Origin: a virus
Taxonomy: Duplodnaviria > Caudoviricetes
DNA: 52,761 bases
Direction: 5' to 3' (one strand)
Virus record (IMG/VR): IMGVR_UViG_3300036782_000035
Span: 1 to 52,761 of that record
Positions 747 through 52,761 of this stretch are shown in pieces; position 1 is the first letter of the stretch, and every line of letters starts with the position of its first letter. A model generated the notes under the pieces. That model was not told where the DNA came from. It did no database searches and was given only the letters and a program-made list of their open reading frames with translations. The position numbers and the translations under genes are program-made.

Positions 747-1009
747 TGGCTGCTCGTTACTACGTCCATGTGTCTCAGGAGCTGCTTGACGCCGAGCCTC
801 CGCCCCCGTGGGAAGGCGCCGGGCTGCACCTCGTCGAGGTGGGCGGCTTCACTGAGCCTGGCTCCCGATGGTGCCTATTCGCCGATGACAACGCGCCGGA
901 AGAGCTGAACGGCAAGAAGGTTGAGCTAGCGCTGACGCGCGGGCCCGTGCACGAGGAAGACCCGTTCACCGATGCCGTTTGGGTCAGCGAACGGCGGGTG
1001 ATCGAGTGA
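746..1009 (+). CDS. Hypothetical protein, paralog of 40548-40787
   Basis: ATG overlaps the upstream TGA; MAARYYVHVSQELLD...WCLFADDNAPEELNGKKVEL. Confidence 0.7.
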   Translation: MAARYYVHVSQELLDAEPPPPWEGAGLHLVEVGGFTEPGSRWCLFADDNAPEELNGKKVELALTRGPVHEEDPFTDAVWVSERRVIE

Positions 1010-1419
1010 CCGGCACGCTGAAGGTCCGCGTCGACTGCCGCGTATCCGGGCCGCTGGAGAACGGCGAGGCGGAGAAGGCCGCGCAGGACTGGGCGACGAA
1101 CACCACGCAGGCGATCGCCGACGAGGGCGTCGCGATGCTCCGCGCCTTCCCGATGGACAAGACCGGCCGCGCCCGCGGCGGCTTCCAGAACGCGCTCAAG
1201 ACCAAGCGGGTGTCACCCACCCTCGTCCGGATCCCCGGCCCGCAGCAGCGCGGTGTCGCCTGGGCGCCGTGGCTTGAGGGCACCTCCGACCGCAACAAGT
1301 CGGCGAAGTTCAAGGGCTACAAGCTGTTCAGCAAGACGCGGCTCGCGCTCAGCAAGAAGGCGCAGGAGATCGCGCAAGAGCAGCTGGAGAAGGTACTGCC
1401 CCGGATGGGCGGTGACTGA
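1006..1419 (+). CDS. Neck/tail completion protein (HK97 gp10-like)
   Basis: GTGA overlap; basic protein with KTGR and WAPWLEGT motifs; synteny. Confidence 0.6.
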   Translation: MTGTLKVRVDCRVSGPLENGEAEKAAQDWATNTTQAIADEGVAMLRAFPMDKTGRARGGFQNALKTKRVSPTLVRIPGPQQRGVAWAPWLEGTSDRNKSAKFKGYKLFSKTRLALSKKAQEIAQEQLEKVLPRMGGD

Positions 1420-2837: not shown

Positions 2838-3262
2838 TGGGCGCCAGGACCCTGGTCGGCGCGGCCTACCCGGCGGCCACCCGTGACTACCTGATCAAGC
2901 TGCCGCGTGACACGAGCATCGTCGCCGCCTGCGAGGACGTGGGCTGCGACCAGCAGGCGCGCGGCTGGGAAACGGTCTGCGACCTCGCCGACCCGATGGG
3001 CGTGAAGGTCGCGATGCTGATCCGCTCCGGCCAGACCGGGCGCACCTACCGGGAGCTGCCCGCGCTGCCCGGATCCCAGACGGCGGTGTTCCGCTTCGAG
3101 TCCGGCCAGCGGTGCTTCACCGAGCACCGCACCCGCCCCGCCCGCTTCCTCGTCGACCCCGGCACCGGCGGCCCGCTGATCAGGCGGACGCGGCTCGCTG
3201 ACTGGGGCGAGGACCTGATGGACCACGCCGGCAACCTGCAAGACCAGCTCAGGAAGGGATGA
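2837..3262 (+). CDS. Hypothetical tail-region protein
   Basis: TGATG coupling; CEDVGC...GWET...GQRCF..H motif. Confidence 0.65.
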   Translation: MGARTLVGAAYPAATRDYLIKLPRDTSIVAACEDVGCDQQARGWETVCDLADPMGVKVAMLIRSGQTGRTYRELPALPGSQTAVFRFESGQRCFTEHRTRPARFLVDPGTGGPLIRRTRLADWGEDLMDHAGNLQDQLRKG

Positions 3263-3265
3263 CCC

Positions 3266-3685
3266 ATGGCCAAGACCAGCGGACTCGGGGCAGCGGTGGT
3301 GGTGGACGACGCCAGCGGCTCCCCGCAGACCATCACCAACGACGTGACCGACTTCTCGCTCGCGACCCCGCGGGCGCTCCAGGACACGACCGGCGTGGAC
3401 AAGTACGCGCACGAGCGGCTGCTGCTGCTCGCCGACGGCACCGTCCAGCTGAAGGGCGTCTTCAACGCGGCGGCGAACATGTCGCACGCGGTGCTGTCCT
3501 CGGTGCCGTCCACGTCGGTGACGCGCACGGTGCTGCTCACCCCGACCGCGAGCACCACGCCGAACCTGTCGATGGAGATGCTGATCAGCTCCTACGACGT
3601 CGCCCGGGCCAACGGCGGCGAGCTTACGTGGAGTTCCGACGCGTCGCTGGAGAACGGGGCCGCGCCCACCTGGACTAACTCGTAA
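3266..3685 (+). CDS. Major tail (tube) protein
   Basis: MAKTSGLG...QDTTGVDK.A.ERLLLLAD; immediately precedes the tail chaperone. Confidence 0.7.
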   Translation: MAKTSGLGAAVVVDDASGSPQTITNDVTDFSLATPRALQDTTGVDKYAHERLLLLADGTVQLKGVFNAAANMSHAVLSSVPSTSVTRTVLLTPTASTTPNLSMEMLISSYDVARANGGELTWSSDASLENGAAPTWTNS

Positions 3686-25138: not shown

Positions 25139-25468
25139 ATGGCAGCAATCGGGTACGAGTGGCAGCGCGTCGCGGCCGCCGTCGAGGCGCAGATCGCCGA
25201 CGGCACCCTGCCACCTGGCGCCATGCTCCGCGGTGAGCGCGCCATGGCCGAGGAACACGGGGTCGCCATCAGCACCGTCCGCCGCGCCCTTAAGGATCTC
25301 CGCGACCGCGGGCTCGTCGTCACCCTGCCAGCTAAGGGCACCTTCGTAGCCGGCAGCGGCTTACCGGGATGCATCAGGATGCGTCCTGTCCCGTCCCGAT
25401 CACGCGTGATGCACCCGCGTAGCGTCCAGCCGTGGACGACGACGAGCCCCCGCGCCGCGTGCGCCTGA
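25139..25468 (+). CDS. GntR-family winged-HTH regulator (Kor-like) 1
   Basis: I.DG.L.PG..L..ER.MA..HGV...TVRRAL..L...GLV......GTFV. Confidence 0.85.
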   Translation: MAAIGYEWQRVAAAVEAQIADGTLPPGAMLRGERAMAEEHGVAISTVRRALKDLRDRGLVVTLPAKGTFVAGSGLPGCIRMRPVPSRSRVMHPRSVQPWTTTSPRAACA

Positions 25469-25707
25469 GCAACACCGAGTACGCCTACGTCCAGGTCGCC
25501 GACGACCTTGAGCGCCGCGTCCGCGCCGGAGAGTTCCCCTACGAGGGCAAGCTGCCTGGCCGCCAGGACCTCGCCGCGGAGTACGGCGTCGGCGAGATGA
25601 CCGTCCGCCACGCGCTGCGGGTCCTCGCCGATAGGGGCATGGTGCGGCTGATGCCGAGCCGTGGGACGATCGTCACGTGGGCAGGGCACACAGAGGGCAC
25701 ACCGTAA
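25432..25707 (+). CDS. GntR-family winged-HTH regulator 2
   Basis: YVQVADDL..R...GE......LP....LA.EYGV...TVRHAL..L...G; TAGCGT 6 nt before GTG suggests a leaderless transcript. Confidence 0.85.
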   Translation: MDDDEPPRRVRLSNTEYAYVQVADDLERRVRAGEFPYEGKLPGRQDLAAEYGVGEMTVRHALRVLADRGMVRLMPSRGTIVTWAGHTEGTP

Positions 25708-25898
25708 CGTCTACGAAACCCCCGGAAACTACACGAAGATTTACGAAGGTAACAGGTAGAAGGCCGTGAATCGAACACGCGAGCCTGTGACCTGCAGCGC
25801 GGAAAAGGCCCGCTACAGTCATGCCGAGACTGTAACACCCGCCCGCCTACCAGCATTTACCGGGCACTTTCCCCCGCAGAGGGCACGTCCGGGGCACA
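25683..25898. other. attP: core TACAGTC-ATGCCGA-GACTGTA (25814-25834) flanked by GGGCAC arm-type repeats
   Basis: 7-bp inverted repeats around a 7-bp overlap at the integrase 3' end; GGGCAC repeats on both sides. Confidence 0.65.
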
Positions 25899-27233
25899 CG
25901 GGGCCGGCCGGAGGAACGCGTCGACCGCCGCGCGGGCGTCGCCGTCGTCACCTCCCGGCATGAAGTGCGCGTAGGTGTCGACCACCGTCTTAACCGAGTC
26001 GCCGATGAACTCCGCCACCCGCACGACGTCCGTCCCGGCGCGCAGCTGCGTGCTGACGAAGGTGTGGCGCAGAGCGTGGCAGCCGTCCTCCCGCTCCCGC
26101 CCGTCCTCCGGCGTGATCCCCGCCCGCCGCCGCGCCCGCCGCCACGTGTTGTCCAGCGAGTGGCGCCCCGCGGGCAGGCCCCGCGCCGTCGTCACGATCA
26201 GCCGCGCCGTCACCGGCTTCCCGTGGCGGCCGCCGCGCCCGGCGTCGGCCGGGTCATGCCACGGCAGCGTCACCTCGACGGCGGGGAACTCGTCCAGGTG
26301 CCGCTGGAGCCGCAGCTTCAGCTCCGGCGACAGCGGCGCGCTGTGCGGCTTGCGGTTCTTCAGCGGCGCGAAGGAGAACTCCCCGCCGGCGTACCGCAGC
26401 TGCCGCACCACCCTCACCCGCGGGTCGTCCCGCGTGAGCCAGTCGACGTCGCCGGTGCCGAGCGCGAGCATCTCGCCCTGGCGCAGGCCCGCCCCGGTGC
26501 CGATGTCGACGAGCACGCGCCACCGCGCGGGCAGCTCGGCGCGCATCGCGTCCGCCTGCGCTGCCGTCCAGGCGCGCGCCCTGCTCGGGCCGATCTGCGG
26601 CCAGGTGACGGACTGCGCCTGGGTCGGGTCGCGGTGCACGACGTTGTCGTCGATCGCCACCCGGAAGCAGTAGGACACGTCCCCCATGACGTGGCGGGCG
26701 CGGATCGGCGACAGCGGGATGGCCGCGGCCCACGCGGCGACGAGGCTCGGCTGCGCGGCGAGCAGCGCCATCGGGTGCTGGCCGATCGAGGGGGCGTCCA
26801 TCGGCGTCCTGCCGCTGCCGGGCTCGCCCTCGTAGACGTGGAGCCGCAGCCGCCCTTCGAGGTCGGCGGCGGTCTGGGGGTTGGGGATCCGCCTGCCCTG
26901 GCGGAGCTTCTCGGCGAACTGCCGCAGGGTGACCTTCCCGGCGTTGGGGTCGGTGTAGGTGCGGGTGACGATCTTGCCCTGCGTGAGCGCGTCGAACGCG
27001 GAGGCGTGCCTCTCCGGGTCGGGTTCCTCGCCGCGGGCGGGGTCGCGGAGCGCGAAGTTGCGCTTGCGGCGCTTGCGGGCGGGGGCCGCGGGGTCTTCCC
27101 ACTGGACCTGCCAGCGCCTGGCCTGGCCGTGGACGGCACTCGGGTAGAGGCGGTTGCGGCCCTTGCCGCACGCGCACGGCTGCAGCTGCTCGCCCTCGCG
27201 GGGCGTCACGTGCCAGCGGTCGTAGACGGCCAT
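25857..27233 (-). CDS. int: Tyrosine integrase
   Basis: GLRQGE (R), K, HALRH, terminal TYAH; N-terminal H G..RWQV.W arm-binding region. Confidence 0.92.
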   Translation of the reverse strand: MAVYDRWHVTPREGEQLQPCACGKGRNRLYPSAVHGQARRWQVQWEDPAAPARKRRKRNFALRDPARGEEPDPERHASAFDALTQGKIVTRTYTDPNAGKVTLRQFAEKLRQGRRIPNPQTAADLEGRLRLHVYEGEPGSGRTPMDAPSIGQHPMALLAAQPSLVAAWAAAIPLSPIRARHVMGDVSYCFRVAIDDNVVHRDPTQAQSVTWPQIGPSRARAWTAAQADAMRAELPARWRVLVDIGTGAGLRQGEMLALGTGDVDWLTRDDPRVRVVRQLRYAGGEFSFAPLKNRKPHSAPLSPELKLRLQRHLDEFPAVEVTLPWHDPADAGRGGRHGKPVTARLIVTTARGLPAGRHSLDNTWRRARRRAGITPEDGREREDGCHALRHTFVSTQLRAGTDVVRVAEFIGDSVKTVVDTYAHFMPGGDDGDARAAVDAFLRPAPCAPDVPSAGESAR

Positions 27234-27496
27234 CAGCGGTACTTCGTGGTAACGCGGACCTTCCGGCGGAACATCGGCCAGACCAGCAGCCAGGCGCCGC
27301 AGGTGAGGATGGTCATCGTCCAGTGGAAGGCGTTGCTGCCCGTCTGGACGGTGACGGTCTTGCGCTCGACGGGCGGCGGCTGGGGCGGGTAGTAGTCCTG
27401 TGGCCGCGCGCCCCACTGCGGCTGCTGCTGCGGGTAAGGCGCGACGGGTCCGTTCTCGTACTGCCTGCCGCGCTGTCTCGGGTCGTACTGGGTCAT
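27233..27496 (-). CDS. Small Pro/Gln-rich membrane protein co-transcribed with int
   Basis: GGAAGGAG SD; HW..TILTCGAWLLVW motif; TGATG coupling to int. Confidence 0.7.
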   Translation of the reverse strand: MTQYDPRQRGRQYENGPVAPYPQQQPQWGARPQDYYPPQPPPVERKTVTVQTGSNAFHWTMTILTCGAWLLVWPMFRRKVRVTTKYR

Positions 27497-27520
27497 GCTG
27501 CGCTCCTTCCTTCGCGCTGT

Positions 27521-27546
27521 GCTGGATGCATCCTGATGCATCCAGC
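27521..27546. repeat. Near-palindromic GGATGCATC motif; second copy at 25367-25386
   Basis: GCTGGATGCATCCTGATGCATCCAGC; reverse complement matches 25367-25386 at 19/20. Confidence 0.7.
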
Positions 27547-27671
27547 GTCCTGTGGAATCCCACGGGAAACACTTGCAAACATGCTGTAACTACGAGTAGT
27601 TTATCGAACTCGTAAGAAACTTATTAAATTTCTGTGAAGAAACGTTAATCACCCAGGGGTGGGGGAGCAGC

Positions 27672-27971
27672 GTGCAGGGGATCAAAGTGCGACGGTTCAG
27701 GCCGGTCACGCTTGTATCGACAATTGTCACAATTGCGGCGGCGTGCCTTTGGGACGTGGCCGCGATGTCAACGTGGGCGGAGGTAGGGCACCCTGCCATT
27801 GCCATCTCAGTGGGCGGCGCGACGTCGGCCACCGTCGTGGCGGCCCTGTGCTGGAAGGCGCGGTGGGACGAGAGGCGCGACCGGGACAAGGCGCTGCTCA
27901 TCAGGACGCTGACCGACGCCATTCCTGGCCGGCCTCTGGCGAAGACGCTCCCGTTTCGCCGCGCTCTTTAG
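27672..27971 (+). CDS. Membrane protein convergent on the repressor
   Basis: GGGGAG SD, two TM segments, preceded by an AT-rich tract. Confidence 0.5.
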   Translation: MQGIKVRRFRPVTLVSTIVTIAAACLWDVAAMSTWAEVGHPAIAISVGGATSATVVAALCWKARWDERRDRDKALLIRTLTDAIPGRPLAKTLPFRRAL

Positions 27972-28278
27972 CGAGCGTCCTTTCAATAGCCGCAATGACG
28001 GCCTGGCGCTCATCTTCCGTCAGGCCGTCCGTGGCCTCTATTTCCCTTAGCAAGCTCTTAGGAATTGCGGGCTCAGGTTCAGGCTCGGCGTCCAGGGGGA
28101 CGCCGAGCACTTCTTCGAGCGCGCCGAGGCGGTTGCGCGGCTTACGCCGGTCGTTCTCCCAGTCGCCGACGGCCCTTTTGGACGCGCCGACGAGCCTTGC
28201 TAGGTCTTCCTGGCTGAGCTGCGCCCGCTCTCGCGCGCGGCGAATGCGCGCGCCTAGCGATGGCGGGTTCCGGGCCAT
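27901..28278 (-). CDS. Immunity repressor (XRE/Cro-CI HTH)
   Basis: IRRARERAQLSQEDLARLVGASKRAVGDWEND; divergent from the early operon. Confidence 0.88.
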   Translation of the reverse strand: MARNPPSLGARIRRARERAQLSQEDLARLVGASKRAVGDWENDRRKPRNRLGALEEVLGVPLDAEPEPEPAIPKSLLREIEATDGLTEDERQAVIAAIERTLAKERGETGASSPEAGQEWRRSAS

Positions 28279-28284
28279 GGCCAC

Positions 28285-28313
28285 ATCATGACCGGCAAGT
28301 CGCGGCAAGTCAA
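28285..28313 (-). promoter_or_regulatory. Repressor promoter (leaderless)
   Basis: TTGACT-17-CATGAT, 6 nt before ATG 28278. Confidence 0.6.
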
Positions 28314-28440: not shown

Positions 28441-28632
28441 TTGCTGACTTCAGCAGAGGCGCGGGAACGGATCGGCATAGGCCGGGCCAAGCTCGAAGCC
28501 CTGATCCGCGAGGGCGAGATCGAGGCAATCAAGACCGGCACCGCGCCGAACTCGCACTACCGCATCCCCGAGGAAGCGGTTGACGCCTACATCGAGCGCC
28601 ACAAGGTCGTGCCCGCACAGGTGGGGTCCTGA
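28441..28632 (+). CDS. Excisionase/Cro-like HTH_17 protein
   Basis: LTSAEA.E.IGIGR..L..LIREGEI.A......YRI.EEAV..YI. Confidence 0.8.
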   Translation: MLTSAEARERIGIGRAKLEALIREGEIEAIKTGTAPNSHYRIPEEAVDAYIERHKVVPAQVGS

Positions 28633-28856
28633 TGCCGCCGCGCGCCGCCGTCAAGCCGGGCGTCAGGCACCTGACGCCCGAGCAGCTCGCCGAGCGGCTG
28701 CAGGTTGAGCTCCACGTCCTCGTCGACTGGCGCAAGAAGAACCGCGGCCCCAACTACATCCGCCCGGAGTCCGACGGCGACAAGGCCAGCATCCGCTACC
28801 CGCTGGCCGAAGTCGAGGCGTGGGAGCAGCGCCAGCTCGTCCAGACCGGCACTTAG
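28632..28856 (+). CDS. Excisionase-like HTH protein
   Basis: LTPEQLAERLQV....L.DWR....GP.Y.......IRY....VEAW. Confidence 0.8.
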   Translation: MPPRAAVKPGVRHLTPEQLAERLQVELHVLVDWRKKNRGPNYIRPESDGDKASIRYPLAEVEAWEQRQLVQTGT

Positions 28857-41451: not shown

Positions 41452-42927
41452 CTACGCGACGATCATGCGGACGCCGGGGCGCTTCGGCGGCGGGATGGTG
41501 AGCGCGATCTTCACCGCGCCGGCGCCCGCGTAGGCCGCGTCAACGTGTCCCTCGCCCTTGCGGACGAAGCGCCAGCCGTCGCCTGAGTTGAGCTTCCGCG
41601 ACGCGCTGACGTGCGCGTTCAGCAGCGGGTCATCGGGATGGATGACACGCGATCCCTTGACGAGCACGGAGAACTCCTGGCATCCCTCGGTGACCCGGCT
41701 GCCGGTGATCGCGCCGTCCTCGGGCAGGTCGCCCGGCTCGCGCTTGCCGCCCGGGCGCCTGTTGTACTTCATGCCGAGGGCGCGCAGGGTGGTCGCGCCG
41801 CCCGCTGCGGGCCCGCTCGAGTACCAGCCGAACGCCGCGGGCCTGATCTTGGCGAGCAGGCCGGGCAGCTCGGCGAGCGCCCTGTTGATGTCGTCCCATG
41901 CCTCGGCTACCTCGACGCGGGCGCGGCCGTCGTCGAGGCGCGCTGCGACGGCCAGCGTGGCGTGCTTGCCGTCTGGCGCGGCGTCGAAGCAGGCGCCGAT
42001 GCGGTCGCGGTGGCCGTCGAGGGTTCCGGCGAGGTCGGCGCACCCTTCCCAGCGCGCGAGGTCGATTGCGCCGTCGAGCGCGTCGACCTTCTGACATAGC
42101 ACCTCGGTGCGGAACACCTCAGGTGTCTCGGTAGCGCACGCGGTGCGGATGGCTGACTCGGAGACGGTGTAACCGAGGCCGGGGTTGGCCTGCCGCCAGG
42201 CGCGGGTGTCGTCGAGCTCGCAGCCGTCCTCGCCGGACCACTCGAAGAGGCCGACGGACTCGTCGCGGCCGGACAAGGCTGAGTCGCGGAGCTGGTTGAG
42301 CACGGTGCTGGTGTCGTCGCCCGCGTTCGACAGGCAGATGGTGAGCGGATTCGGCCTGGCCATGGTCGTGTAGTAGAGCGCTGACCAGGCTTTACGGTCC
42401 CGGTGAGTCCTGAGTTCATCCATGATCAGGCCATCGACGCTAAATCCGCGGCCTGCGTCGGGTGTGGCACTCCTGACCATGTACTCGGCGCCGTTCTTCA
42501 GCCCGAACGCCTCCTGGCCGTTGACGTGCCGGTGGTAGCTCAGGCGCCGGGCGAGCGACGGCGTGTCCTCGATCATGCGGAGGGTGAGTTTCCACTGGTT
42601 GGACGCCTGGGCGAGGTCTTGAGCGGTGCCGAGGATCAGCCGGCAGTCGTCGTCGAAGAGCATCCGCCACAGGGTGATCATCCGCATCAGATGTGATTTC
42701 CCGGATTGCCGGGCCACCATGATCAGGACGATGCGGAAGCGGTAAGTACCGTCGGCGTTGACCTCCATGGCGTGCTTGACGGCCCACTGCTGCCAGGGAA
42801 GGAGCGGCTCGCCGATCGCTTCGGCGAAGTCGATGACGTCGTAGCCGTAGCTGGTGCGCCGCGAGAGCGGCCGGAGCGGTTCGGGGTGCAGGCGCGCTTC
42901 GGTGATGCCGCGCAGCTGCTTAGGCAC
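41452..42927 (-). CDS. terL: Terminase large subunit
   Basis: LLPWQ, Walker A VARQSGKS, GRG.S..LIMDE, SNAG, W.QANP, F.TE.LC, C-terminal HVDA. Confidence 0.92.
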   Translation of the reverse strand: MPKQLRGITEARLHPEPLRPLSRRTSYGYDVIDFAEAIGEPLLPWQQWAVKHAMEVNADGTYRFRIVLIMVARQSGKSHLMRMITLWRMLFDDDCRLILGTAQDLAQASNQWKLTLRMIEDTPSLARRLSYHRHVNGQEAFGLKNGAEYMVRSATPDAGRGFSVDGLIMDELRTHRDRKAWSALYYTTMARPNPLTICLSNAGDDTSTVLNQLRDSALSGRDESVGLFEWSGEDGCELDDTRAWRQANPGLGYTVSESAIRTACATETPEVFRTEVLCQKVDALDGAIDLARWEGCADLAGTLDGHRDRIGACFDAAPDGKHATLAVAARLDDGRARVEVAEAWDDINRALAELPGLLAKIRPAAFGWYSSGPAAGGATTLRALGMKYNRRPGGKREPGDLPEDGAITGSRVTEGCQEFSVLVKGSRVIHPDDPLLNAHVSASRKLNSGDGWRFVRKGEGHVDAAYAGAGAVKIALTIPPPKRPGVRMIVA

Positions 42928-43252: not shown

Positions 43253-43427
43253 TTGGTGGTCCTCTACATTCCTGTGACCTGTTTGCACAAGAGTGTCGCG
43301 CCTTCTCTTGTGGTTTTCCTCCAATCGGATGTTAACCTGTGCGTGTCACGAGGGCCGGGAGCGGTGAAAACGCCTTTCCGGCCTTTCGTGACGCCCGCTT
43401 CCGGCTCTCCCGTCAGGGGAGGGCGTC

Positions 43428-43676: not shown

Positions 43677-43929
43677 CGTGACCGCCGACGAGCTCCTGAA
43701 GAGGGCTGCGGCCTGCCGGGACTGCGGCAAGGAGCACGAGTACCGCCAAGTCGAGACGTCCCGGGGAAGCTGGGCGGCCGGCGACGGCCACGCTTACCGC
43801 CCGGTAGTCGATATCGGCATCGTCGCGAAGCTCCGCTACCTCGCGACCGGCAGCTACGTGGATCCCTGGCTGCTGCCCAAGCAAACAATGGCGTCCAAGA
43901 TCGCCTCAGCGATCGGGCTGAGCACCTGA
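43669..43929 (+). CDS. Hypothetical protein
   Basis: Coupled ORF. Confidence 0.5.
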   Translation: MADVTADELLKRAAACRDCGKEHEYRQVETSRGSWAAGDGHAYRPVVDIGIVAKLRYLATGSYVDPWLLPKQTMASKIASAIGLST

Positions 43930-45371
43930 TGGGCTCGCTGCTGGGCCAGTTGATGAACGCGAAGGCGTCGCAGTCCGCCGGCTCGCCGGTGCCGATGGGC
44001 GGCGGCATGGTGGGCATGCCGGGCAGCTCGTCCGGGAGCAATATCGACCTGACGCTGATCCGCTCGTACCGGATGAACGGGACCGTCTACTCGAACGTGT
44101 CGCTGATGGCGCGGTCGGTCGCCAAGCAGCAGTGGAACCTGTACCGGCAGGCGCCGCCGTCGGCCCGGTTCACGACCAGCGACCGCGGCAGCGACCAGCG
44201 CAAGCAGGTCCAGGTGCACGCGGCCCTGAACGTGCTCAACTCCCCGGCCAGCATCACGGTGCCGACGCCGCGCGGGCCTAAGCGGATCCAGGTGTGGAGC
44301 CGCTCGCAGCTGTTTTACGTGTCGCAGATCTGGATGAAGACGTGCGGCAAGTCGTACTGGATCGTCGACACGGCCGAGGACGCCTCGCCGATCCCCTTGG
44401 GGCTGTGGCCGGTGCGCCCGGACCGCATCATCCCGGTTCCCGACCGGAACCGCTACCTGGCGGGGTACCTGTACCGCTCGCCGGACGGCCAGGAGATGAT
44501 CCCGCTGCGGCCGGACGAGGTGATCGTCAACCGCTACGCGGACCCTGAGGACCCTTACGGCGGCTGCGGGCCGATTCAGGCGGTGCTGGCCGATATCCAG
44601 GCGGCTGATTACGCGGCTGAGTGGAATAAGAACTACTTCGTCAATTCGGCTGAGCCGGGCGGCATTATCCAGCTTGACACGACGCTCAATGACGAGGAAT
44701 TCGACCAGTTCACCAGCCGCTGGCGGGAAACTCACCGGGGCGTGGCGAGGGCGCACCGCATCGCGGTGCTTGAGGCCGGGGCGACGTGGGTTGCGAACAA
44801 CCACAGTGCCCGTGACATGGACTTTGTCAACCTGCGGAATTCCTCGCGTGACATTATCCGCGAGGCACTGGCAATGCACAAGGTAATGACCGGGGTAACA
44901 GAAGATGTCAACAGGGCCAATGCGCAGACCGGGGAAGAGGTTTTCTCTTCCTGGACGGTCGCGCCGGACCTTGAGCAGTGGCGAGACGACGTAATCAACA
45001 CGCAGTTCCTTCCGCTGTTCGGTGATACCGCGCAGGGCGTGGAATTCGACTTCGCGTACCCCACGCCGGCGAACCGCGAGCAGGACAACGCCGAATTGAC
45101 GACGAAGACGGCGGCGTACTCGGTGCTGGTGGACGCGGGGGTTGACCCGGATGACGCGGCGCAGGTGGTCGGGCTGCCGCCGATGAAGATGGCCGAGGTC
45201 GCGACCCAGTCGCCGGCTCTGCCGCCCGGCTGGGTGCCGGAGCTCGCGCCCGGTGCCGCGCCCGCTCCTGATGCGGCCGCTGTCGCGTCGGCCGAGGCGA
45301 TCCTGCGCGCCGCGGCGGCACGGGATCCGCGGGCGATGGCCATTTACAACCAGCTGGCGGGCGCATCATGA
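43929..45371 (+). CDS. Portal protein (HK97 family)
   Basis: LWPVRPDR, YF.N.A.PGGI, VLE.G, DMDF motifs. Confidence 0.92.
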   Translation: MGSLLGQLMNAKASQSAGSPVPMGGGMVGMPGSSSGSNIDLTLIRSYRMNGTVYSNVSLMARSVAKQQWNLYRQAPPSARFTTSDRGSDQRKQVQVHAALNVLNSPASITVPTPRGPKRIQVWSRSQLFYVSQIWMKTCGKSYWIVDTAEDASPIPLGLWPVRPDRIIPVPDRNRYLAGYLYRSPDGQEMIPLRPDEVIVNRYADPEDPYGGCGPIQAVLADIQAADYAAEWNKNYFVNSAEPGGIIQLDTTLNDEEFDQFTSRWRETHRGVARAHRIAVLEAGATWVANNHSARDMDFVNLRNSSRDIIREALAMHKVMTGVTEDVNRANAQTGEEVFSSWTVAPDLEQWRDDVINTQFLPLFGDTAQGVEFDFAYPTPANREQDNAELTTKTAAYSVLVDAGVDPDDAAQVVGLPPMKMAEVATQSPALPPGWVPELAPGAAPAPDAAAVASAEAILRAAAARDPRAMAIYNQLAGAS

Positions 45372-46039: not shown

Positions 46040-47499
46040 CTGGATACCCGTTCAGGGCCCGCATCCGCGCCGAGGGCACCTCTACCCGCGTCGACCTCAT
46101 GGATGACATAGGAGAGGACCCGTGGTTCGGCGGGGGCATCTCTGCGGCGGCGTTCACTGACAGCCTGTCCGGGCTGCGCGGGCCGCTCGACGTGCACATC
46201 AGCAGCCAGGGCGGCATGGTCGACCAGGGGCTCGCAATCTACAACGCGCTGGCCTCCTACAAGGGCCCAGTGACGACCTACAACGACGGGATCGCGGCCT
46301 CGATCGCGTCGGTGATCATGCAGGCGGGCTCGAAGCGGGTGGCGAGTCCAGTGTCGGTCATGATGCTGCACGACGCCTGGGGTGACCCGGGGCCCGGCAA
46401 CGCGGCCGACATGGAGGCGATGCGCGCGGCTCTGGACAAGAACTCCGACGTCATCGCGCGGGCTTACGCCGACCGGGCTGGCGGGACGGTCGCGTCATGG
46501 CGCGAGGTCATGCAGAACACGGCCTGGTACGACGCGGACGACGCGCTCAAGGCTGGGCTGATCGACGAGATCGCGGGCGGGTCGAAGCTCCCGGGCACCG
46601 TGGACCTTGACGCACTGGCCGCAGCGAAGGCCCCGACGAGGATCATGGCCGCGCTGCGCGCCGCGGCGGATGACGGCTCAGGCGACGGCGACGGCACCGG
46701 CCAGTCGTGCAAGACGTGCGGCGGCAAGGGGCGCCTGCCGCACCCTGGCACCGGCAAGAACGGGATGACCTGCCCTGGCTGCGGCGGCAGCGGCACTTAC
46801 GACCCGGCTGCGGCGCCGGACGGCGACGGCGACCCGGACGAGGGCATGGAGCTCGGCGACCGCGGCCCGGCGGTGCACGCCAAGGCGGGCGACGAGCAGC
46901 TCGGCAGCGGCTGGGTCAAGGGCGCTGACGGCAAGGTCCGGTTCGACCCGGACGGCGACGGCGACGACGACAGCACGCCTGAGGGCGATACCGACCACGA
47001 CTACTTCGACGCGGACGGCAAGCAGATCAAGCCGATCCCGCCCCGCCCGCCCGCGGCGAAGGACGAGGGCCCGGACCTGTGGGCGGTCTACCGGATGGCA
47101 GTGCGGGACGCCGGCAAGGTCGACAACAGCCCGTGGGACTCGAGCAAGGCGTGGTCGGCGGGCGCTGCATCCGATGACCCCGCTGCGTTCTACGCGGGGA
47201 TCTGCGCGGGCGAGAAGGCGGGCGACAAGTCAACGCAGGCCGCGTGGGCGCTGCCGTACAGGTACGCGCCCGGTGACCCGCCGAACGAGAAGGGCGTTGA
47301 GGCCGCTCTCGCGGCACTGAACGGCGCCCGCGGCGGCGTGCAGGGGCTCACCAATGAGGCCGAGGCGAAGAAGACGCTGCAGGCGGCGATGAAGCAGGTC
47401 AACCCGGACTGGGAGCCGGAAGACAGCACCACAGCGAGCATCTCCGCGGCTGACGCCCTGGAGCGGTACCGAGCGGCTCTGAAGGGAGCGCAAACGTGA
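46036..47499 (+). CDS. ClpP-type capsid maturation protease with C-terminal extension
   Basis: ISSQGG, DGIAASIAS (Ser), MMLHDA (His), WY....A...GLID. Confidence 0.88.
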   Translation: MTGYPFRARIRAEGTSTRVDLMDDIGEDPWFGGGISAAAFTDSLSGLRGPLDVHISSQGGMVDQGLAIYNALASYKGPVTTYNDGIAASIASVIMQAGSKRVASPVSVMMLHDAWGDPGPGNAADMEAMRAALDKNSDVIARAYADRAGGTVASWREVMQNTAWYDADDALKAGLIDEIAGGSKLPGTVDLDALAAAKAPTRIMAALRAAADDGSGDGDGTGQSCKTCGGKGRLPHPGTGKNGMTCPGCGGSGTYDPAAAPDGDGDPDEGMELGDRGPAVHAKAGDEQLGSGWVKGADGKVRFDPDGDGDDDSTPEGDTDHDYFDADGKQIKPIPPRPPAAKDEGPDLWAVYRMAVRDAGKVDNSPWDSSKAWSAGAASDDPAAFYAGICAGEKAGDKSTQAAWALPYRYAPGDPPNEKGVEAALAALNGARGGVQGLTNEAEAKKTLQAAMKQVNPDWEPEDSTTASISAADALERYRAALKGAQT

Positions 47500-48998
47500 A
47501 GGGACAGGTAGCGATCCCCGAAAGCTCCGAAGAGCTTGAGGAACTGCTGCACGACGACGGGCGGATGGGCGAGGTTGCCGGCAGCCCCGAGCTGCTGGCC
47601 GAGTTCACCCAGAAGTACCAGGGTGCGTGGAAGGCGAAGAACGCGCTGGCGATCCGCGAGATGGCGGAGAAGCAGCAGGTGGACTACCAGGACTTCATGC
47701 GCGAGCAGGCCGACAAGCACGGCGCCCGCGCACCGGAGGGCTACCAGCCCGGCGCGCCCGCGGCGTTCGGCGGGTCGAAGCGCTCGCGGGCGCTGGCGAA
47801 GTCGCGGCTGCGGAACGCGGCGGCGCAGTTCGAGAGGCACCACCTGTTCAGCCCCACCGCGATCGGCGGGGGCCTGGAGGACGCCGAGTACGCCGACAAC
47901 CTGCGGCAGTTCATCTGGGCGACGCTGAAGGGCGAGGCGGTCGCGGCGCAGAACGGCGACTCCGAGCTCGCCGGGAAGCTGCTGTCGCTCAAGGGGCAGC
48001 TGGCCAAGCAGCTGGAGATCCGCAACGCGGGCATGAGCGAGCGGATCCCGTCCGAGGGCGGCTTTTTGGTTCCGGAGACGCTGCGGTCGGAGATCTACGC
48101 GCTGATGCTGGAGGAGTCGGTGATCAGCGACCAGGCGACCACGATTCCCATGGACAGCCTGCGGGTTCCGCTGCCGACGATCGACGACACTTCGCACGCC
48201 TCGAGCGTGTTCGGCGGGGTGGCGGGCGCGTGGACGGCTGAGGGCGCGGCGATGTCGACGTCGTCGCCGACGTTCTCCCGCCTCGTGCTGATCGCCAACA
48301 AGCTGACCGCTTACACCGAGATTCCGAACGAGCTGCTGCAGGACAGCGTGTCGGCGATGGACGTGTGGTTCAACACGTTCTTCCCGCAGGCGCTCGCGTT
48401 CTTCCGTGACCTGGCGTTTATCACGGGGGACGGCGTCAACCAGCCCCTGGGGCTCGCCAACGCTCCCGGCGCGGTGAAGGTGACGGGTACCAGCTCCCAC
48501 CACATCAGGTTCGCGAACGTGGTGTCGATGTTCTCGCGGATGTGGCCGGGCTCGCTGAAGAACGCCGTGTGGCTGGCCGCGCCGGACACGCTGCCGGAGC
48601 TGGCGCAGATGGCGGTGTCCGAGGACGGCTCCGGCGGTACCACGGTTGCGCCGCCGGTGTTCCTGCCGGGCATGTCGGCGCTGAACGCGCCGGGTGAGTA
48701 CGACGGCCGCTCGTTCACGCTGATGGGCCGGCCGGGGATCGTGTCGGAGAAGGTCCCGGCGCTGGCCGGGTCGGTTCCGGGCTCGCTGATGTTCGTGGAC
48801 CTGTCCAAGTACCTCGTCGGCGACCGGCAGGCCATGCAGGTCGCATCTTCGGCCGAGTACAAGTTCGCCAACGACATGGTCGCCTACCGGGTGATCGAAA
48901 GGCTGGATGGGCGGCCTTGGGTGCAGTCGCAGATCACCCCGGCGAACGGGTCGGCCAACACCCTCTCGCCGTACGTCCTTCTCGACACCACGAGCTGA
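47496..48998 (+). CDS. Major capsid protein (HK97 fold) with N-terminal scaffold/delta region
   Basis: GGFLVPE, W.AEG, KL.A...I.NELL.DS, AFI.G.G..QP.G, R..ER.DG. Confidence 0.92.
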   Translation: MKGQVAIPESSEELEELLHDDGRMGEVAGSPELLAEFTQKYQGAWKAKNALAIREMAEKQQVDYQDFMREQADKHGARAPEGYQPGAPAAFGGSKRSRALAKSRLRNAAAQFERHHLFSPTAIGGGLEDAEYADNLRQFIWATLKGEAVAAQNGDSELAGKLLSLKGQLAKQLEIRNAGMSERIPSEGGFLVPETLRSEIYALMLEESVISDQATTIPMDSLRVPLPTIDDTSHASSVFGGVAGAWTAEGAAMSTSSPTFSRLVLIANKLTAYTEIPNELLQDSVSAMDVWFNTFFPQALAFFRDLAFITGDGVNQPLGLANAPGAVKVTGTSSHHIRFANVVSMFSRMWPGSLKNAVWLAAPDTLPELAQMAVSEDGSGGTTVAPPVFLPGMSALNAPGEYDGRSFTLMGRPGIVSEKVPALAGSVPGSLMFVDLSKYLVGDRQAMQVASSAEYKFANDMVAYRVIERLDGRPWVQSQITPANGSANTLSPYVLLDTTS

Positions 48999-49010: not shown

Positions 49011-49346
49011 ATGTCGGTCTACTCGCAGTTCCTGACTCCAGTTGACGCGGTCACTGTTAATCACACCACGTTGACGGAAGTCGGCTCCGTGGTCGATTTC
49101 GGTGTCGTCTACAGCGGCTTCACCGCCTTTGCATCCATAGACCCTTCTAGCGCAGACGACGCCACCGTCGTCGTGGACACCTCAATCGATGACGTGACCT
49201 GGCTTTCCGCGCCGAGCGCGGACGTCGGCGTTGGCGACATGGCAGTCGTGGCAGTTCCGGCCGGCCGGTACGTGCGCGTCAAGAGTTCCGTTTCTAGCGA
49301 GGGTCAATCATCCATCCTGACTGTTCAGGTCGCGGTCGAGGGCTGA
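49011..49346 (+). CDS. Hypothetical beta-rich protein, lower GC (decoration-like?)
   Basis: AAAGGAAG SD; GRYVRV motif; between the capsid paralogs. Confidence 0.55.
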   Translation: MSVYSQFLTPVDAVTVNHTTLTEVGSVVDFGVVYSGFTAFASIDPSSADDATVVVDTSIDDVTWLSAPSADVGVGDMAVVAVPAGRYVRVKSSVSSEGQSSILTVQVAVEG

Positions 49347-50482
49347 TGGACTTCCGGGACTCGCCGCACTACAGGGCGGACGCGCCGGGCGCGCGGCTGG
49401 ATGACCAGCCGTGGGCCCGGTCGTGGCCTGCCTTTTTGTCGGCCGTGTTCGACTCGCGGGACGGCTCGGCCCGGCAGTTCATCAGGAACGCGTGGACGGA
49501 AAGAATCCCGAGCGAGGGCGGCTTTTTGGTTCCGGAGTCCCTTAGGGCCTCCGTCATGGCGTACGTCACTCCGGCTGTCGTCAGGCCCCGGGCGCTGGTG
49601 CTGCCGATGGGCACTTTGCGCATGGGCATCCCCGTGCTGGACAGCTCGTCGCAGGCGGGCGGCGCGCAGTCCCTGGGCGGAATGACGTTTTCCTTCGTGC
49701 AGGACGGCGCGGCGATCCCGAGCAGCACGCCGGGCCTGGCGCGGGTGATGCTGGAGGCGCAGAAGCTTGCGGCGCTGGCAGCGATCCCGAACGAGCTGGA
49801 CTCGGACGCGGCGGGCGCGCTGGGTGACCTGTTCTCTCGGGTGGTGGCGCTGGGCTACTCCTGGTACGAGGATGACGCGTTCATCGGCGGCAACGGGGCC
49901 GGGCAGCCGCAGGGGGTGCTGAACGCCCCGTGCGCGGTCACGGTGACCCGGGCGGCCTCCGGGCTGCCGGCGGCGGCGGACCTGGCGAACATGATCAGCG
50001 CGTTCCACCCGGCGTCGCTGGCGGCGGGGTACGCGCCAGAGGTGAACGGCGTGGGCTGGCTGGTGTCGCAGTCGGTGATCACCGGCATCTTGCAGCAGTA
50101 CCTCGTTCCCGGCGGGGGCACGGCGACGAGCGGCGCGCCCGCGTCGCTCCCGGCGTGGCTGAGCCTGGGCGACGGGCGCCTGACCGCCCCGGCCATTCTC
50201 GGGCTGCCCGCGCTCATCTCCGACCACTCGCCCGCGGCGGGCTCGGCCGGCGATATCGCGCTGGTCGACTTCCGGCACTACGCGATCGGCGACCGGATGG
50301 AGCTGACGGTGGACAGGTCGGCGGCCGGCTCCGGGTTCGCCTCCGACGTGACGAACTACAGGTTCAGGGCCCGGGTTGACGGCCGGTACACGGTCATGGG
50401 CCCGATTACTCCCGAGATCGGCGCGGGAGACGACAACGCCGACCTGGTCAGCCCGGTCGTCATTCTCGGCGCGGCTTCTTAG
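49346..50482 (+). CDS. Second major-capsid-family protein
   Basis: ERIPSEGGFLVPE, KLAA...IPNEL..D, AFIGG.G.GQPQG, R.RVDG. Confidence 0.85.
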   Translation: MDFRDSPHYRADAPGARLDDQPWARSWPAFLSAVFDSRDGSARQFIRNAWTERIPSEGGFLVPESLRASVMAYVTPAVVRPRALVLPMGTLRMGIPVLDSSSQAGGAQSLGGMTFSFVQDGAAIPSSTPGLARVMLEAQKLAALAAIPNELDSDAAGALGDLFSRVVALGYSWYEDDAFIGGNGAGQPQGVLNAPCAVTVTRAASGLPAAADLANMISAFHPASLAAGYAPEVNGVGWLVSQSVITGILQQYLVPGGGTATSGAPASLPAWLSLGDGRLTAPAILGLPALISDHSPAAGSAGDIALVDFRHYAIGDRMELTVDRSAAGSGFASDVTNYRFRARVDGRYTVMGPITPEIGAGDDNADLVSPVVILGAAS

Positions 50483-50494
50483 GAGGAAAAGGAA

Positions 50495-51007
50495 ATGGCT
50501 GGTATCGAGCGGCTGGGACTGGACTTCGACGTCTCCCAGGGCTGGACCCCGCAGGACTTCCACACGGCCGGGATCACCGGCGCGTGGGTGTCGCTGAAGG
50601 CGGCGGAGGGCGTGCTGTTCGTCGTGCAGTTCAAGGCGGGCACGTCCGGTGACAACGCCACCTTGACGCTGCAGCAGGCGAAGACCGCGGCGGGCGGGTC
50701 CGCGGCGAACCTGGCGGTGATCGACCACTACTGGCTGAAGGCGAACGCGACGCCGACGAACGACCTGACCGGGGCCGAGGTGTGGACCGCGGTGACGCAG
50801 GCGGCGGCGGCGACGGTGACGGCGACGGCGGCTGATTACCAGCTGCTGGCGATCCCGGTGCTGGCGGAGAACCTTTCGGCCGGGTTCGCGTACGTGAACC
50901 TGTCGGCCGGGAGCACGGCGGCGGCGCAGATCGGGTCCTCGCTGGCGATCGTGCAGGGGCTGGCGGTGCAGCGGCTCCCGTCGAACCTGGCTGCGCTGGA
51001 CAGCTGA
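50495..51007 (+). CDS. Capsid decoration/head accessory protein
   Basis: AGGAGG SD; WVSLK, TLTLQQA and GF.YV motifs; follows the capsid genes. Confidence 0.55.
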   Translation: MAGIERLGLDFDVSQGWTPQDFHTAGITGAWVSLKAAEGVLFVVQFKAGTSGDNATLTLQQAKTAAGGSAANLAVIDHYWLKANATPTNDLTGAEVWTAVTQAAAATVTATAADYQLLAIPVLAENLSAGFAYVNLSAGSTAAAQIGSSLAIVQGLAVQRLPSNLAALDS

Positions 51008-51009
51008 CC

Positions 51010-51333
51010 GTGCGGCGGTGCGCGGCGTGCGGGGCGCAGGCGGCGCCTGGTGCGCCGCGCTGCCCGGAGTGCCCATCAACGGAGTTCACGGAAGCGGAGG
51101 CGGACGAGGTGCTGAAGATCAACCGGCTGGGCGTCGTGTCCGACTCGGCTGCCGTGCAGGCTCCTGCCGTTGCCGGGGTGGCCGTGCCTGCGGCACCGGA
51201 GGCGACGCCGGCCGAGGCTGCCGCTTCCCCGGCTGCCGAAGCGCCCGCGCCCGAGACGGCGCCCGCGCCCGTTGCCCCGCCGCCGGTTCGCACGCCGCCG
51301 CGGCGCCCGCCTAGGACGGCTGACGATGGCTAG
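51010..51333 (+). CDS. Zinc ribbon plus Pro/Ala-rich protein
   Basis: CAAC...CPEC followed by a low-complexity tail. Confidence 0.55.
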   Translation: MRRCAACGAQAAPGAPRCPECPSTEFTEAEADEVLKINRLGVVSDSAAVQAPAVAGVAVPAAPEATPAEAAASPAAEAPAPETAPAPVAPPPVRTPPRRPPRTADDG

Positions 51334-51583
51334 CCAGGCGAACGGCTGGTGGGGGCTGCACAGCGTCTTCGAGGAGAGCCGGCAGGAGTTCGACGCCTAC
51401 TGGAGCCGTCCGCCGGTGGACTGCCCGATCTGCGGTCAGCCACTGGTGAACGCGCCGAGCACGAGTTCAGGTTCGGGGGTTGAGCTGTACTGCAATTACG
51501 CCGGCGATCACTCGTTCCGGTACCCGCGTGACTTCTCGCCTGCCGTCCGGTTCGACTCGGGCGGGCAGGTGAGCCCGCTGTGA
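51326..51583 (+). CDS. Small zinc-binding head-region protein
   Basis: PPVDCPICGQPL...YC...H.FRYPRD. Confidence 0.65.
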   Translation: MASQANGWWGLHSVFEESRQEFDAYWSRPPVDCPICGQPLVNAPSTSSGSGVELYCNYAGDHSFRYPRDFSPAVRFDSGGQVSPL

Positions 51584-52452
51584 GCGCGAAGCCGGTTACC
51601 CCGACGAAGCCCGCCAAGCCCGCGGCCGCGAAGACGACCGTCAAGAAGGCGAAGACGAGCAGTAAGGCGGCCAAGACGAAGAGCAGCAAGGCGTCGCCGC
51701 CGTTGTCGGCGAAGGCGAAGGCGGCTGCGCACGTCGCGCACGTGAAGCATGAGCAGCACCTGGCGCATGAGGCGCACCTGAAGGCTGAGGGGAAGGTGGT
51801 GGCGCTCGCTATCGGTGACGCGCTGCCGGTGTGCGCGTTCGAGGCTGTGGCCGCGTCGCTACGCTTGCTCGGCGCGCGGGTGCACGGTGACGATGTCGGC
51901 GAGCTGTGGCACCTGCTGGGCGAGCCGGAGGCGGCGCCGGTTGGCGAGGCGCTAGCTGCTGCTGCCCTGTTCGGACTGGCCGGGTACCGGCCAGTCGCTA
52001 CTGCCGGAGATGACCTCGGCAGCCTCGCCTGGCATGAGGGCGACCCCTCCGAACTGGACTTTGGGCACGTCAACGGGCGTCATGAGTCGAACGACGGTGG
52101 TCTTCAGTGCCATCGCCAGTCCGGTGATTTCGTCCGCTTGGACAGAGCGTGCTTCCCGTTCGACCTTGCTCATGGTCTGCGGGTACCAGTCATCGAAGCC
52201 GAGCCAGCGCATGCGCTCGCAAGTCTCTTGCTGGGAGATGTTGAGGCGAGCGCGGGCGGCCCTGATGTTCGCAGCGAGAACACTCGAATAGTTCGTCATG
52301 AACTAGAACGTAGCACAGGGCACCTGATCCTAAGCGTGGACGTTCCCGGCCCGCACGCGGTGCTGGCGACCGCTGACGGCTGGTGGTCGTGGGGCGAGCT
52401 GTACGACCCGTGGCCGTGCCGCGTCAGCGACGCGTGGGCGGTGAGCTGGTGA
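51580..52452 (+). CDS. Lys/Ala-rich, His-repeat protein with possible Cys-His peptidase-like domain; hosts an antisense gene
   Basis: Coupled at both ends (GTGA); VCAFEA...GPHAVL...WWSWG. Confidence 0.65.
   Translation: MSAKPVTPTKPAKPAAAKTTVKKAKTSSKAAKTKSSKASPPLSAKAKAAAHVAHVKHEQHLAHEAHLKAEGKVVALAIGDALPVCAFEAVAASLRLLGARVHGDDVGELWHLLGEPEAAPVGEALAAAALFGLAGYRPVATAGDDLGSLAWHEGDPSELDFGHVNGRHESNDGGLQCHRQSGDFVRLDRACFPFDLAHGLRVPVIEAEPAHALASLLLGDVEASAGGPDVRSENTRIVRHELERSTGHLILSVDVPGPHAVLATADGWWSWGELYDPWPCRVSDAWAVSW
51952..52299 (-). CDS. XRE-family HTH protein nested antisense
   Basis: LAANIRAARARLNISQQE..ERM..LG...W..QT.SKVE...R.V...E...LA.AL; TGcTACGTT 7 nt before ATG. Confidence 0.8.
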   Translation of the reverse strand: MTNYSSVLAANIRAARARLNISQQETCERMRWLGFDDWYPQTMSKVEREARSVQADEITGLAMALKTTVVRLMTPVDVPKVQFGGVALMPGEAAEVISGSSDWPVPGQSEQGSSS

Positions 52453-52761
52453 CGATCTTCCGACCCGCCTTGTGCAACCGCTACGAGCCGATGCGCGCCC
52501 TGGACTTCCCGCCGGGCATCGACATCGTGAGCGCCGTCGACCGCGCCCTGACCGATGTGGCCGAAAATGTCGAGGGCCACCTTCACCGCGTGTTCTTCCC
52601 GTCCGATGACACCCGTTACTGGGACTGGCCGTCCCAGGGCAACAGCGGCGGCGGCCAGCTCGCGGACCCCTGGCGCCTGTGGTTCGACGAGAACGACATC
52701 GTGTGCATGACCAGCCTGATAGCCGGGGGCGTCACGCTCGGCCTGGATCAGGTGTTCCTGC
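52449..52761 (+). CDS. Head-to-tail adaptor, N-terminal part (runs off window end)
   Basis: GTG overlaps upstream TGA; HRVFFP...TRYWDWP...PWRLWFD. Confidence 0.7.
   Translation, partial: MTIFRPALCNRYEPMRALDFPPGIDIVSAVDRALTDVAENVEGHLHRVFFPSDDTRYWDWPSQGNSGGGQLADPWRLWFDENDIVCMTSLIAGGVTLGLDQVFL

Follow-up and report, generated by a model that had tools for sequence, protein, structure and literature searches.

An XRE-type regulator gene nested antisense in the hypervariable linker of a phage late-operon gene

Can a complete regulator gene lie antisense inside a phage late gene while that gene continues to encode a protein of its own? The question was raised by IMG/VR virus record IMGVR_UViG_3300036782_000035 (Duplodnaviria; Caudoviricetes), whose 52,761 nucleotides were analyzed in full and are referred to here as the window. 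The original prediction, made from the letters of the window, described a late open reading frame (ORF) on the + strand and, nested within it on the - strand, an ORF for an XRE-family helix-turn-helix (HTH) regulator; its coordinates and frames were recovered exactly. We conclude that this stretch of DNA very probably encodes two proteins. In the explanation that we favor, to which we assign a probability of about 60%, a cassette carrying the regulator replaced a disordered linker of the late protein in antisense orientation, and both genes are functional. The elements of the locus, with positions in the window, are as follows.

51580-52452, + strand: late-operon host ORF, 290 amino acids (aa), GTG start, member of an unnamed family with two conserved domains
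51580-51993, + strand: N-terminal part of the host protein (tail rich in Lys and Ala, His-rich helix at aa 42-69, N-domain at aa 79-138), delimited by alignments, AlphaFold 2 (AF2), and a GC content at third codon positions (GC3) of 0.83-0.97
51832-51834, + strand: codon of Cys85, an invariant column of the family
52321-52452, + strand: C-domain (aa 248-290), LILxVDxPGPH(259)AVLAT..GWWSWG..AWAVSW, delimited by invariant columns and a GC3 of 0.90-0.97
51952-52299, - strand: XRE-family HTH gene, 115 aa, ATG start, with 603 relatives and a ratio of nonsynonymous to synonymous substitution rates (dN/dS) of 0.30
51994-52320: cassette, comprising XRE codons 1-102 and a 21-bp leaderless-type promoter and equal to host linker aa 139-247, delimited by DNA homology with the contig L024
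52307-52315, - strand: extended -10 element TGCTACGTT, 7 nt upstream of the XRE ATG

On the sequence evidence, the - ORF is a genuine XRE-type gene. In a full HMMER pass over 1.84 billion representatives, its protein had 603 relatives at E≤1e-3, of which 131 reached E≤1e-10; they were mostly 80-300 aa long, 40-57% identical, and matched over residues about 2-105. The nested protein carries 10 of the 10 residues that are invariant in an alignment of 40 sequences of the family. Among these 40 relatives, HTH_31 (PF13560) was matched by 34 (best E 1.5e-8) and HTH_3 (PF01381) by 24 (E≤0.01), and the family profile matched PDB entry 2ewt_A, a 'putative DNA-binding protein', at E 3.6e-4 over positions 3-75. 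The window protein alone scored 19.3 bits against HTH_31, below the Pfam cutoff of 27 (E 0.0015), and the HTH assignment therefore rests on the family; the claim of a convincing HTH stood for the family and fell short for the single protein. No other gene in the genome belongs to this family: the nested protein matched the family profile at E 2.5e-42, and the next match had an E of 0.11. The protein database contained the 290-aa protein of the window and not its XRE protein: only the + ORF had been called.

The two ORFs are codon-aligned on opposite strands, and selection on each was assessed by comparison with L024, a metagenome contig that holds the nearest XRE homologue (63% protein identity, and 71% DNA identity over window positions 51951-52278). 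Over XRE codons 1-104, 23, 21, and 49 differences were found at the first, second, and third codon positions, respectively. Read in the XRE frame, the alignment gave a dN/dS of 0.30 and a protein identity of 0.63; read in the late-strand frame, it gave 1.40 and 0.47, respectively. The late-strand reading of the linker is thus taken to be a passenger. The per-strand dN/dS, which had been proposed as a check, came out in favor of the nested gene, with purifying selection on the - strand only.

The host gene is likewise genuine and uninterrupted, as judged from its family and from both of its ends. Its protein had at least 153 homologues at E≤0.01, of which 61 were aligned. The N-domain and the C-domain were both present in 61 of 61 members, Cys85 and His259 were invariant in all of them, and all 16 columns invariant across the alignment carried the family residue in the window protein. 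The motif GWWSWG was common to the C-domains of the family, and the GC3 of both flanks (0.83-0.97) matched that of confident genes of the phage. AF2, run with 61 sequences, folded the N-domain with predicted local distance difference test (pLDDT) values of 74-93 for aa 81-140, including a helix (85-96) that starts at Cys85. The predicted coupling at both ends was confirmed: GTG 51580 overlaps the TGA (51581-51583) of the upstream ORF as GTGA, and the TGA of the host ORF (52450-52452) overlaps GTG 52449 of the next gene, again as GTGA. The N-termini of the family, which begin M/V-[ST]-A-K, agree with the GTG 51580 start, and the start of the next gene is supported in the same way (VTIFRP in the window versus MAVTRP in the L024 homologue). 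No sign of an intein or a self-splicing intron was found, as judged by Pfam for the + ORF and by Rfam at E≤1 within 51000-52761. The antisense gene is carried without breaking the frame of the late gene, as had been proposed. The two coupled neighbors are listed below.

51330-51583, + strand: upstream late gene for a small CxxC-containing protein, whose stop overlaps the start of the 290-aa ORF and which has a homologue in L024
52449-52761 and then 1-746, + strand: next late gene, matching the 380-aa gene of L024

The cassette occupies a linker whose length and sequence vary while the reading frame is kept and the flanks are conserved, as the original prediction had anticipated from an alignment of homologues. 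Linkers were parsed by sequence motifs in 81 of the 120 listed homologues; between the N- and C-domains they measured 13-118 aa (median 41), and the 75 linkers of at least 20 aa fell into 43 sequence clusters. The nearest relatives by flank (P0004, P0005, and P0002) carry linkers unrelated to that of the window, which spans aa 139-247 (109 aa) and is predicted to be disordered (AF2 pLDDT <50 for aa 143-227). XRE-type linkers were found in two of the 81, namely the window and P0003, a protein from another assembly. Among 23 viral loci examined (10 parsed by motif, 12 unparsed, and one without an ORF bearing the motif), the parsed linkers were 19-75 aa long and none contained the cassette.

The lower GC content of the middle was confirmed (0.60-0.63 over 52075-52374 versus 0.69-0.74 alongside), and the GC3 of the + frame drops from 0.83-0.97 to 0.50-0.73 over 51940-52330. 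As a mark of antisense coding this fall was rejected, since it recurs in 10 of the 10 parsed viral relatives, whose linkers are much shorter and free of the cassette. In these relatives (L001, L003, L004, L007, L010, L011, L015, L016, L017, and L019), the linker GC3 was 0.48-0.72 versus 0.79-0.89 in the flanks, and the linker GC content at first codon positions was 0.73-0.90 in nine of the ten. The linker seems to follow different evolutionary rules and possibly turns over fast via insertions and deletions or recombination. A separate observation concerns the long linker of P0006 and the C-terminal extension of P0022, which both contain G-R-D-[SL]-N-P and, after it, ELPASP-(A)LILG. ALILG, with which the C-domain starts, occurs twice in P0006 and flanks the G-R-D-[SL]-N-P stretch. 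GRDSNP is the translation of a reverse-complemented tRNA T-arm, and the stretch could be a tRNA or attachment-site fragment inserted in or beside the gene.

The entire host linker is the antisense of the cassette, and the cassette boundaries are established by L024. DNA similarity between the window and L024 spans the -10 element to the XRE stop, with nothing beyond, so the shared unit is the promoter plus the gene. The late genes of L024 are arranged as a Zn-ribbon gene, a 131-aa gene, the 380-aa gene, the cassette (antisense), and a homologue of window 1006-1419; the cassette stands where the window has a small gene at 746-1009. The host gene family was not found in L024 when its hidden Markov model (HMM) was run over six frames (best E 0.54, to another ORF). 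A cassette at this second site without the host gene has therefore moved independently of the host gene, and by analogy its behavior is moron-like. It was also considered whether the L024 cassette retains a remnant of the host N-domain, the antisense tails being alike; this was unsupported, the family HMM being blank in six frames.

At the N-domain side of the window copy, the last 12 XRE codons and the stop are the antisense of the end of the host N-domain. The TAG that ends the XRE gene faces the CTA codon of host Leu125, a nearly invariant residue, and the family-conserved XRE Trp103 (TGG) lies opposite the CCA of host Pro138. A 4391-base contig from a second assembler, built from a run that is possibly the source sample, covers 51300-52745 and both junctions with 0 differences. 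Among sequencing runs, one DNA run, possibly that of the source sample, was listed as containing the stretch, and no RNA run was. In L024, the antisense of the XRE gene is itself a 136-aa ORF (107-517 on the - strand of that locus), which begins with a GTG that shares bases with the upstream late gene's stop and ends about 20 nt beyond the downstream late gene's ATG; this ORF could serve as a bridge.

P0003 (293 aa) aligns across the window linker. The two proteins agree at 42/60 residues of the N-domain and 35/43 of the C-domain, compared with 51/109 for the linker and 24/78 for the Lys-rich tail. The P0003 antisense could encode 21 of the 21 conserved XRE positions, though the codon sets are permissive. 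The nesting has been kept through considerable divergence from P0003 together with both domains, which argues that the read-through protein works. We regard the nesting as a single-lineage event in a hypervariable linker.

The promoter-like element of the cassette, predicted as an extended -10 that lies 7 nt before the ATG, was found at that position and is conserved: L024 holds TGCTAGATT in place of TGCTACGTT, likewise 7 nt from the ATG. An NANNNT hexamer stands 6-7 nt before the start in five of the six XRE family members examined, against a per-position background of 0.021. Such spacing would give a leaderless transcript, and leaderless transcripts are common in Actinobacteria. Five TGNTANNNT sites occur on both strands of the genome (105,522 positions), including the one 7 nt before the XRE ATG; shuffled genomes gave 11.2, and the motif is therefore, if anything, avoided. 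The other four are located at 4728-4736 (-), 25746-25754 (-), 25829-25837 (-), and 43330-43338 (+). Of these four, two lie just 3' of the integrase gene and one falls in the gap between the terminase and portal genes, which diverge; the four may mark the few extended -10 promoters of the phage. Two inverted repeats were also located, neither of which is kept in L024.

52289-52305: perfect palindrome TAGTTC-N5-GAACTA, centered on the XRE start codon, the sole exact copy in the genome
51974-51996: perfect inverted repeat (10-bp arms, 3-nt loop) where the N-domain meets the cassette

As a guess, TAGTTC-N5-GAACTA might be a candidate operator.

The favored explanation would run as follows. A cassette of about 330 bp, made up of a leaderless-type extended -10 promoter and an XRE repressor-like gene, would have taken the place of the linker in antisense orientation. 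The recipient would have been an accessory late-operon gene of a temperate actinophage, with a linker that was naturally hypervariable and disordered. Because the codon-aligned antisense of a GC-rich gene is often stop-free and the frame is, by chance, kept at both junctions, ribosomes translating the late mRNA would read through the cassette. We infer that they would pass the Cys-bearing N-domain, 109 passenger residues, and the His-bearing C-domain, with translational coupling to the next gene retained. Transcription from the cassette's promoter would supply the XRE protein, most plausibly in the lysogen, where late transcription is off.

Several observations weigh against this explanation. 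For the regulator, a two-hexamer sigma-70 scan gave 0 sites at the XRE start, with no -35 found; the terminator search for the XRE gene returned one weak match, where 0.5 were expected, and none otherwise; and no conserved operator was found near the gene in the L024 alignment. The window XRE protein alone is below the Pfam threshold, and its AF2 model, built from a two-sequence alignment, has four helices and a mean pLDDT of 46, which is poor. For the host protein, the C-domain was not resolved by AF2 (pLDDT 39-50, with strands predicted at 261-270), and a Foldseek search of the PDB with the AF2 host model gave a meaningless best match (E 9). The host gene is absent from the related L024 and hence dispensable there, and a dead copy would be tolerated. 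The late-strand linker, with its dN/dS of 1.40, has no constraint of its own, and in its linker the window protein is no closer to P0003 (51/109) than it is, on the late strand, to the L024 copy, which is not nested (0.47). Finally, chance alone often leaves this register open, as the caveat attached to the original prediction had warned. Among windows of 116 codons in the phage's own genes, the codon-aligned antisense register was open in 4540 of 6564, and phage codon usage gives a probability of 0.51 that the XRE sequence is stop-free on the other strand; from the third-base usage of the cassettes themselves, the expectation is 0.17 for the window and 0.16 for L024. The open + frame is thus meaningful as evidence only weakly.

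The rival that survives best is that the host gene is dead, the insertion having inactivated a dispensable late gene whose + frame stayed open by chance, so that only the XRE gene functions. We consider this possible but unlikely. A stop-free chance of 0.17-0.69, multiplied by 1/3 for the register, makes such an accident about 0.06-0.23 probable, and the absence of the host family from L024, the late-strand linker dN/dS, and the poor C-domain model are all in its favor. A dead gene would hardly account for the 16 of 16 intact family-invariant columns in the window, for flank GC3 values like those of confident phage genes, or for GTGA coupling that is intact at both ends. The domains of P0003, moreover, are far better conserved than its tail and linker, which is not pseudogene-like.

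Two further readings attribute the open frame to selection and draw on the codons TTA, CTA, and TCA, which place stops in the antisense register. These make up 36 of the 8289 codons in the phage. They are entirely missing from the window and L024 copies, whereas seven of eight free-standing homologues have 1-3 and one of eight has none; the late-operon copies are therefore stop-free in 2/2 cases (3/3 with P0003) versus 1/8 elsewhere, which is suggestive, with the limit that the clean copies are related to one another. In other fourfold families, the cassettes use A-ending codons more often (7/51 in the window cassette and 10/60 in the L024 cassette), from which their low stop-free expectations derive. 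Tentatively, the cassette may have adapted to living backwards in late operons, with selection purging TTA, CTA, and TCA from the XRE gene so that the late mRNA stays translated, although we doubt it. If true, the cassette would bridge cistrons in L024 or serve as a two-domain linker in the window and P0003, and this would amount to a transferable design rule for antisense morons.

Less probable still is a purely translational bridge, in which selection holds the late-strand frame stop-free irrespective of the protein that it encodes, so that ribosomes stay on the late mRNA, coupling is preserved, and Rho-type polarity is avoided at any late-operon site of the cassette. The missing TTA, CTA, and TCA codons, the low stop-free expectations from third-base usage, and the L024 antisense ORF that overlaps an upstream stop and a downstream start are what such a bridge predicts. 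It is set back by the small number of copies (two or three, related and not independent), by the phage-wide expectation of an open frame of 0.51-0.69, and by a reversed family member in L028 that lies among opposite-strand genes and has three antisense stops; nothing pointed to Rho polarity in this host.

The original prediction had gone further and treated the linker as a general cargo slot that carries various antisense genes in different phages, which we regard as very unlikely. The hypervariability of the linker and the unrelated linkers of the nearest relatives would suit it, as would a few other long linkers of 102-116 aa (e.g., P0006 and P0067). The XRE type was present in only 2 of the 81 parsed linkers, however, and the median of 41 aa makes a typical linker too short to hold a gene, as do the 19-75 aa of the parsed viral loci; in L024, the cassette lies outside any such gene. 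Further nested XRE genes were sought in the 120 listed homologues and the 23 viral loci, and none was found beyond the window and P0003. A search restricted to the linker (aa 139-247) returned only the window's own protein, a weak blank because P0003 was also missed. The last rival, that the - ORF is not a gene and is open only by chance in GC-rich DNA, could appeal to the commonly open codon-aligned register, the sub-threshold Pfam score, and the GC3 drop in relatives without an antisense gene, and it is refuted, as far as sequence evidence can do so, by the 603 relatives (131 at E≤1e-10), the E of 2.5e-42 to the family profile, the dN/dS of 0.30 on the - strand, and the conserved promoter element.

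The possible role of the nested gene may be read from its relatives and from the switch region of the phage, which includes the following genes.

25857-27578, - strand: integrase (PHROG match)
27901-28308, - strand: canonical XRE repressor candidate, adjoining the integrase gene (HTH_31, E 4.3e-11)
28584-28856, + strand: HTH_17 gene, divergent from the 27901-28308 gene (HTH_17, E 5.4e-6)

Four of the four free-standing XRE relatives examined diverge from a small gene on the other strand. In L025, L026, and L029, this small gene encodes HTH_17 or HTH_3, and replication-type genes (Prim-Pol, Toprim, or DUF3631) lie beyond it; in L028, it has no Pfam match. In L026, an integrase gene is directly downstream of the XRE gene. 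This layout is the classic position of an immunity repressor, here in other prophages and integrative elements. The nested gene lies in the late operon, away from the canonical position, which is filled by the 27901-28308 HTH_31 gene, a protein outside the family of the nested gene (E 0.11). As the switch of the phage already has an unrelated XRE protein, the nested gene is read as an extra, captured repressor. By analogy, it most likely acts on foreign or secondary targets, for example in immunity against heterotypic phages, and it is plausibly expressed in the lysogen. On L028, a 105-kb viral contig, the XRE member (2983-3363) is a lone reversed gene among opposite-strand genes near a terminase gene; this copy sits between genes and carries three antisense stop codons. 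In the window, the integrase gene is followed, just 3' and on the other strand, by a small GntR-family HTH gene (25423-25707, + strand; E 2.7e-16).

The function of the host protein was approached through its invariant residues. No Pfam, PHROG, or PDB sequence match was obtained for the window protein, and across the 61 family members there was no consistent Pfam match and no PDB sequence at E≤1. Atlas feature scores reached 0.88-0.89, under the 0.9 level, to clusters partly annotated as IpaJ_protease or Peptidase_C39. The protein fits a papain-like layout, in which a helix begins at an invariant Cys and a beta region further along contains an invariant His, and it had no sequence or fold match to any known peptidase family in Pfam, the PDB, or Foldseek. 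A Cys-His peptidase is a reasonable guess from the invariant pair and the sub-threshold Atlas hints. At its start (51580-51790), the protein has a tail rich in Lys, Ala, and Thr and a helix rich in His (aa 41-70 have an AF2 pLDDT of about 90); tail and helix occur family-wide, the tail being poorly conserved in sequence, and together they suggest nucleic-acid or metal binding.

The window is a complete assembly of 52,761 bases in one contig and is circularly permuted, the gene that starts at 52449 running on at 1-746. A single 380-aa gene of L024 matches both the end and the start of the window. The phage is a temperate, tailed phage of GC-rich soil bacteria. Its late genes include those for a portal protein, two major-head-like proteins, and a major tail protein, with a 1035-aa ORF between tail genes; a large terminase, an integrase, a RecE/RecT-like pair, an FtsK-like protein, and an endolysin are also encoded. 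The large terminase gene (41452-42927, - strand) diverges from the portal gene (43929-45371, + strand) and the rest of the late operon. The adjacent genes 47496-48998 and 49346-50482 both match the major-head family phrog_10 (E 6e-44 and 3e-23, respectively); they may be capsid paralogues, or one may encode the capsid protein and the other a derivative that serves in decoration or as a scaffold. The host phylum, as judged from relatives, is most likely Actinomycetota: one homologue of the + protein is labelled Actinocrinis, and two XRE homologues are located in Actinomycetota metagenome-assembled genomes. A profile search of genome contigs with the 10 closer XRE sequences led to three loci. 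In a phage GenBank collection, no match was found by blastn of 51300-52761 or by tblastn of the + and - proteins.

The arrangement shares features with several known systems. Phage morons are lysogen-expressed genes with their own promoters, inserted between genes of late operons. The cassette resembles them as a small gene with its own promoter-like element and deviant GC content in a temperate late operon, at a position that differs among related phages. It differs in that the window copy lies inside the frame of a gene and has no terminator that could be found; the L024 copy lies between genes. Rickettsia palindromic elements insert in frame inside ORFs, and in the mycobacterial interspersed repetitive units (MIRUs), small ORFs overlap the flanking stop and start. 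Both exemplify mobile DNA that is tolerated through in-frame translation or cistron bridging, as the L024 antisense ORF looks to be, but they carry no gene of their own. The nested protein shares its XRE-type HTH family with actinobacterial CI/XRE immunity repressors, and three of the four free-standing relatives have a switch-like layout, whereas the nested copy is far from the phage switch at 25.8-28.9 kb, which has another XRE.

ShiLan-type hidden HNH endonuclease insertions are reported in actinophage DNA methylase genes (PMC11855218; PMC9957025). The former describes an insertion that is stop-free in the methylase frame and predicted to loop out, leaving the host protein unspoiled. As far as these accounts go, the likeness lies in an insertion without a stop in the host frame that holds a real gene in another reading and is neither an intein nor an intron. 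The hidden gene of ShiLan is described as an out-of-frame homing endonuclease, in an element that is thought to home (PMC11855218), whereas the cargo here is an antisense, codon-aligned HTH regulator that has a promoter of its own and no apparent way to home. A search of the text of PMC11855218 for the terms antisense, opposite strand, and reverse complement returned no such wording. For antisense embedded genes of bacteria, PMC7457138 and PMC8850804 present the embedded gene as evolutionarily novel and the mother gene as old. These cases, as described there, also have an ORF wholly inside an opposite-strand gene, with the embedded gene under purifying selection; the ages are reversed in the window, where the embedded gene is old (603 relatives) and the overlapped part of the mother gene is new. 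In the literature searched, we found no description of this antisense regulator-in-linker arrangement, which does not prove its absence.

Antisense coding of two proteins is rare but not unprecedented. What is new relative to the known cases is an old regulator family in codon-aligned antisense, with its own promoter, that makes up the whole of a host linker. The case is unusually clean, each partner having a family independent of the other's. Long overlaps in antisense are disallowed by gene callers, and hidden regulators of this kind are therefore systematically missed. The overlapped stretch of the host protein would be new sequence obtained by reading acquired DNA backwards, and disordered linkers would have a route for absorbing whole genes. 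If the nested regulator is a captured foreign repressor, the locus would represent an economical means by which a prophage acquires immunity to a different phage.

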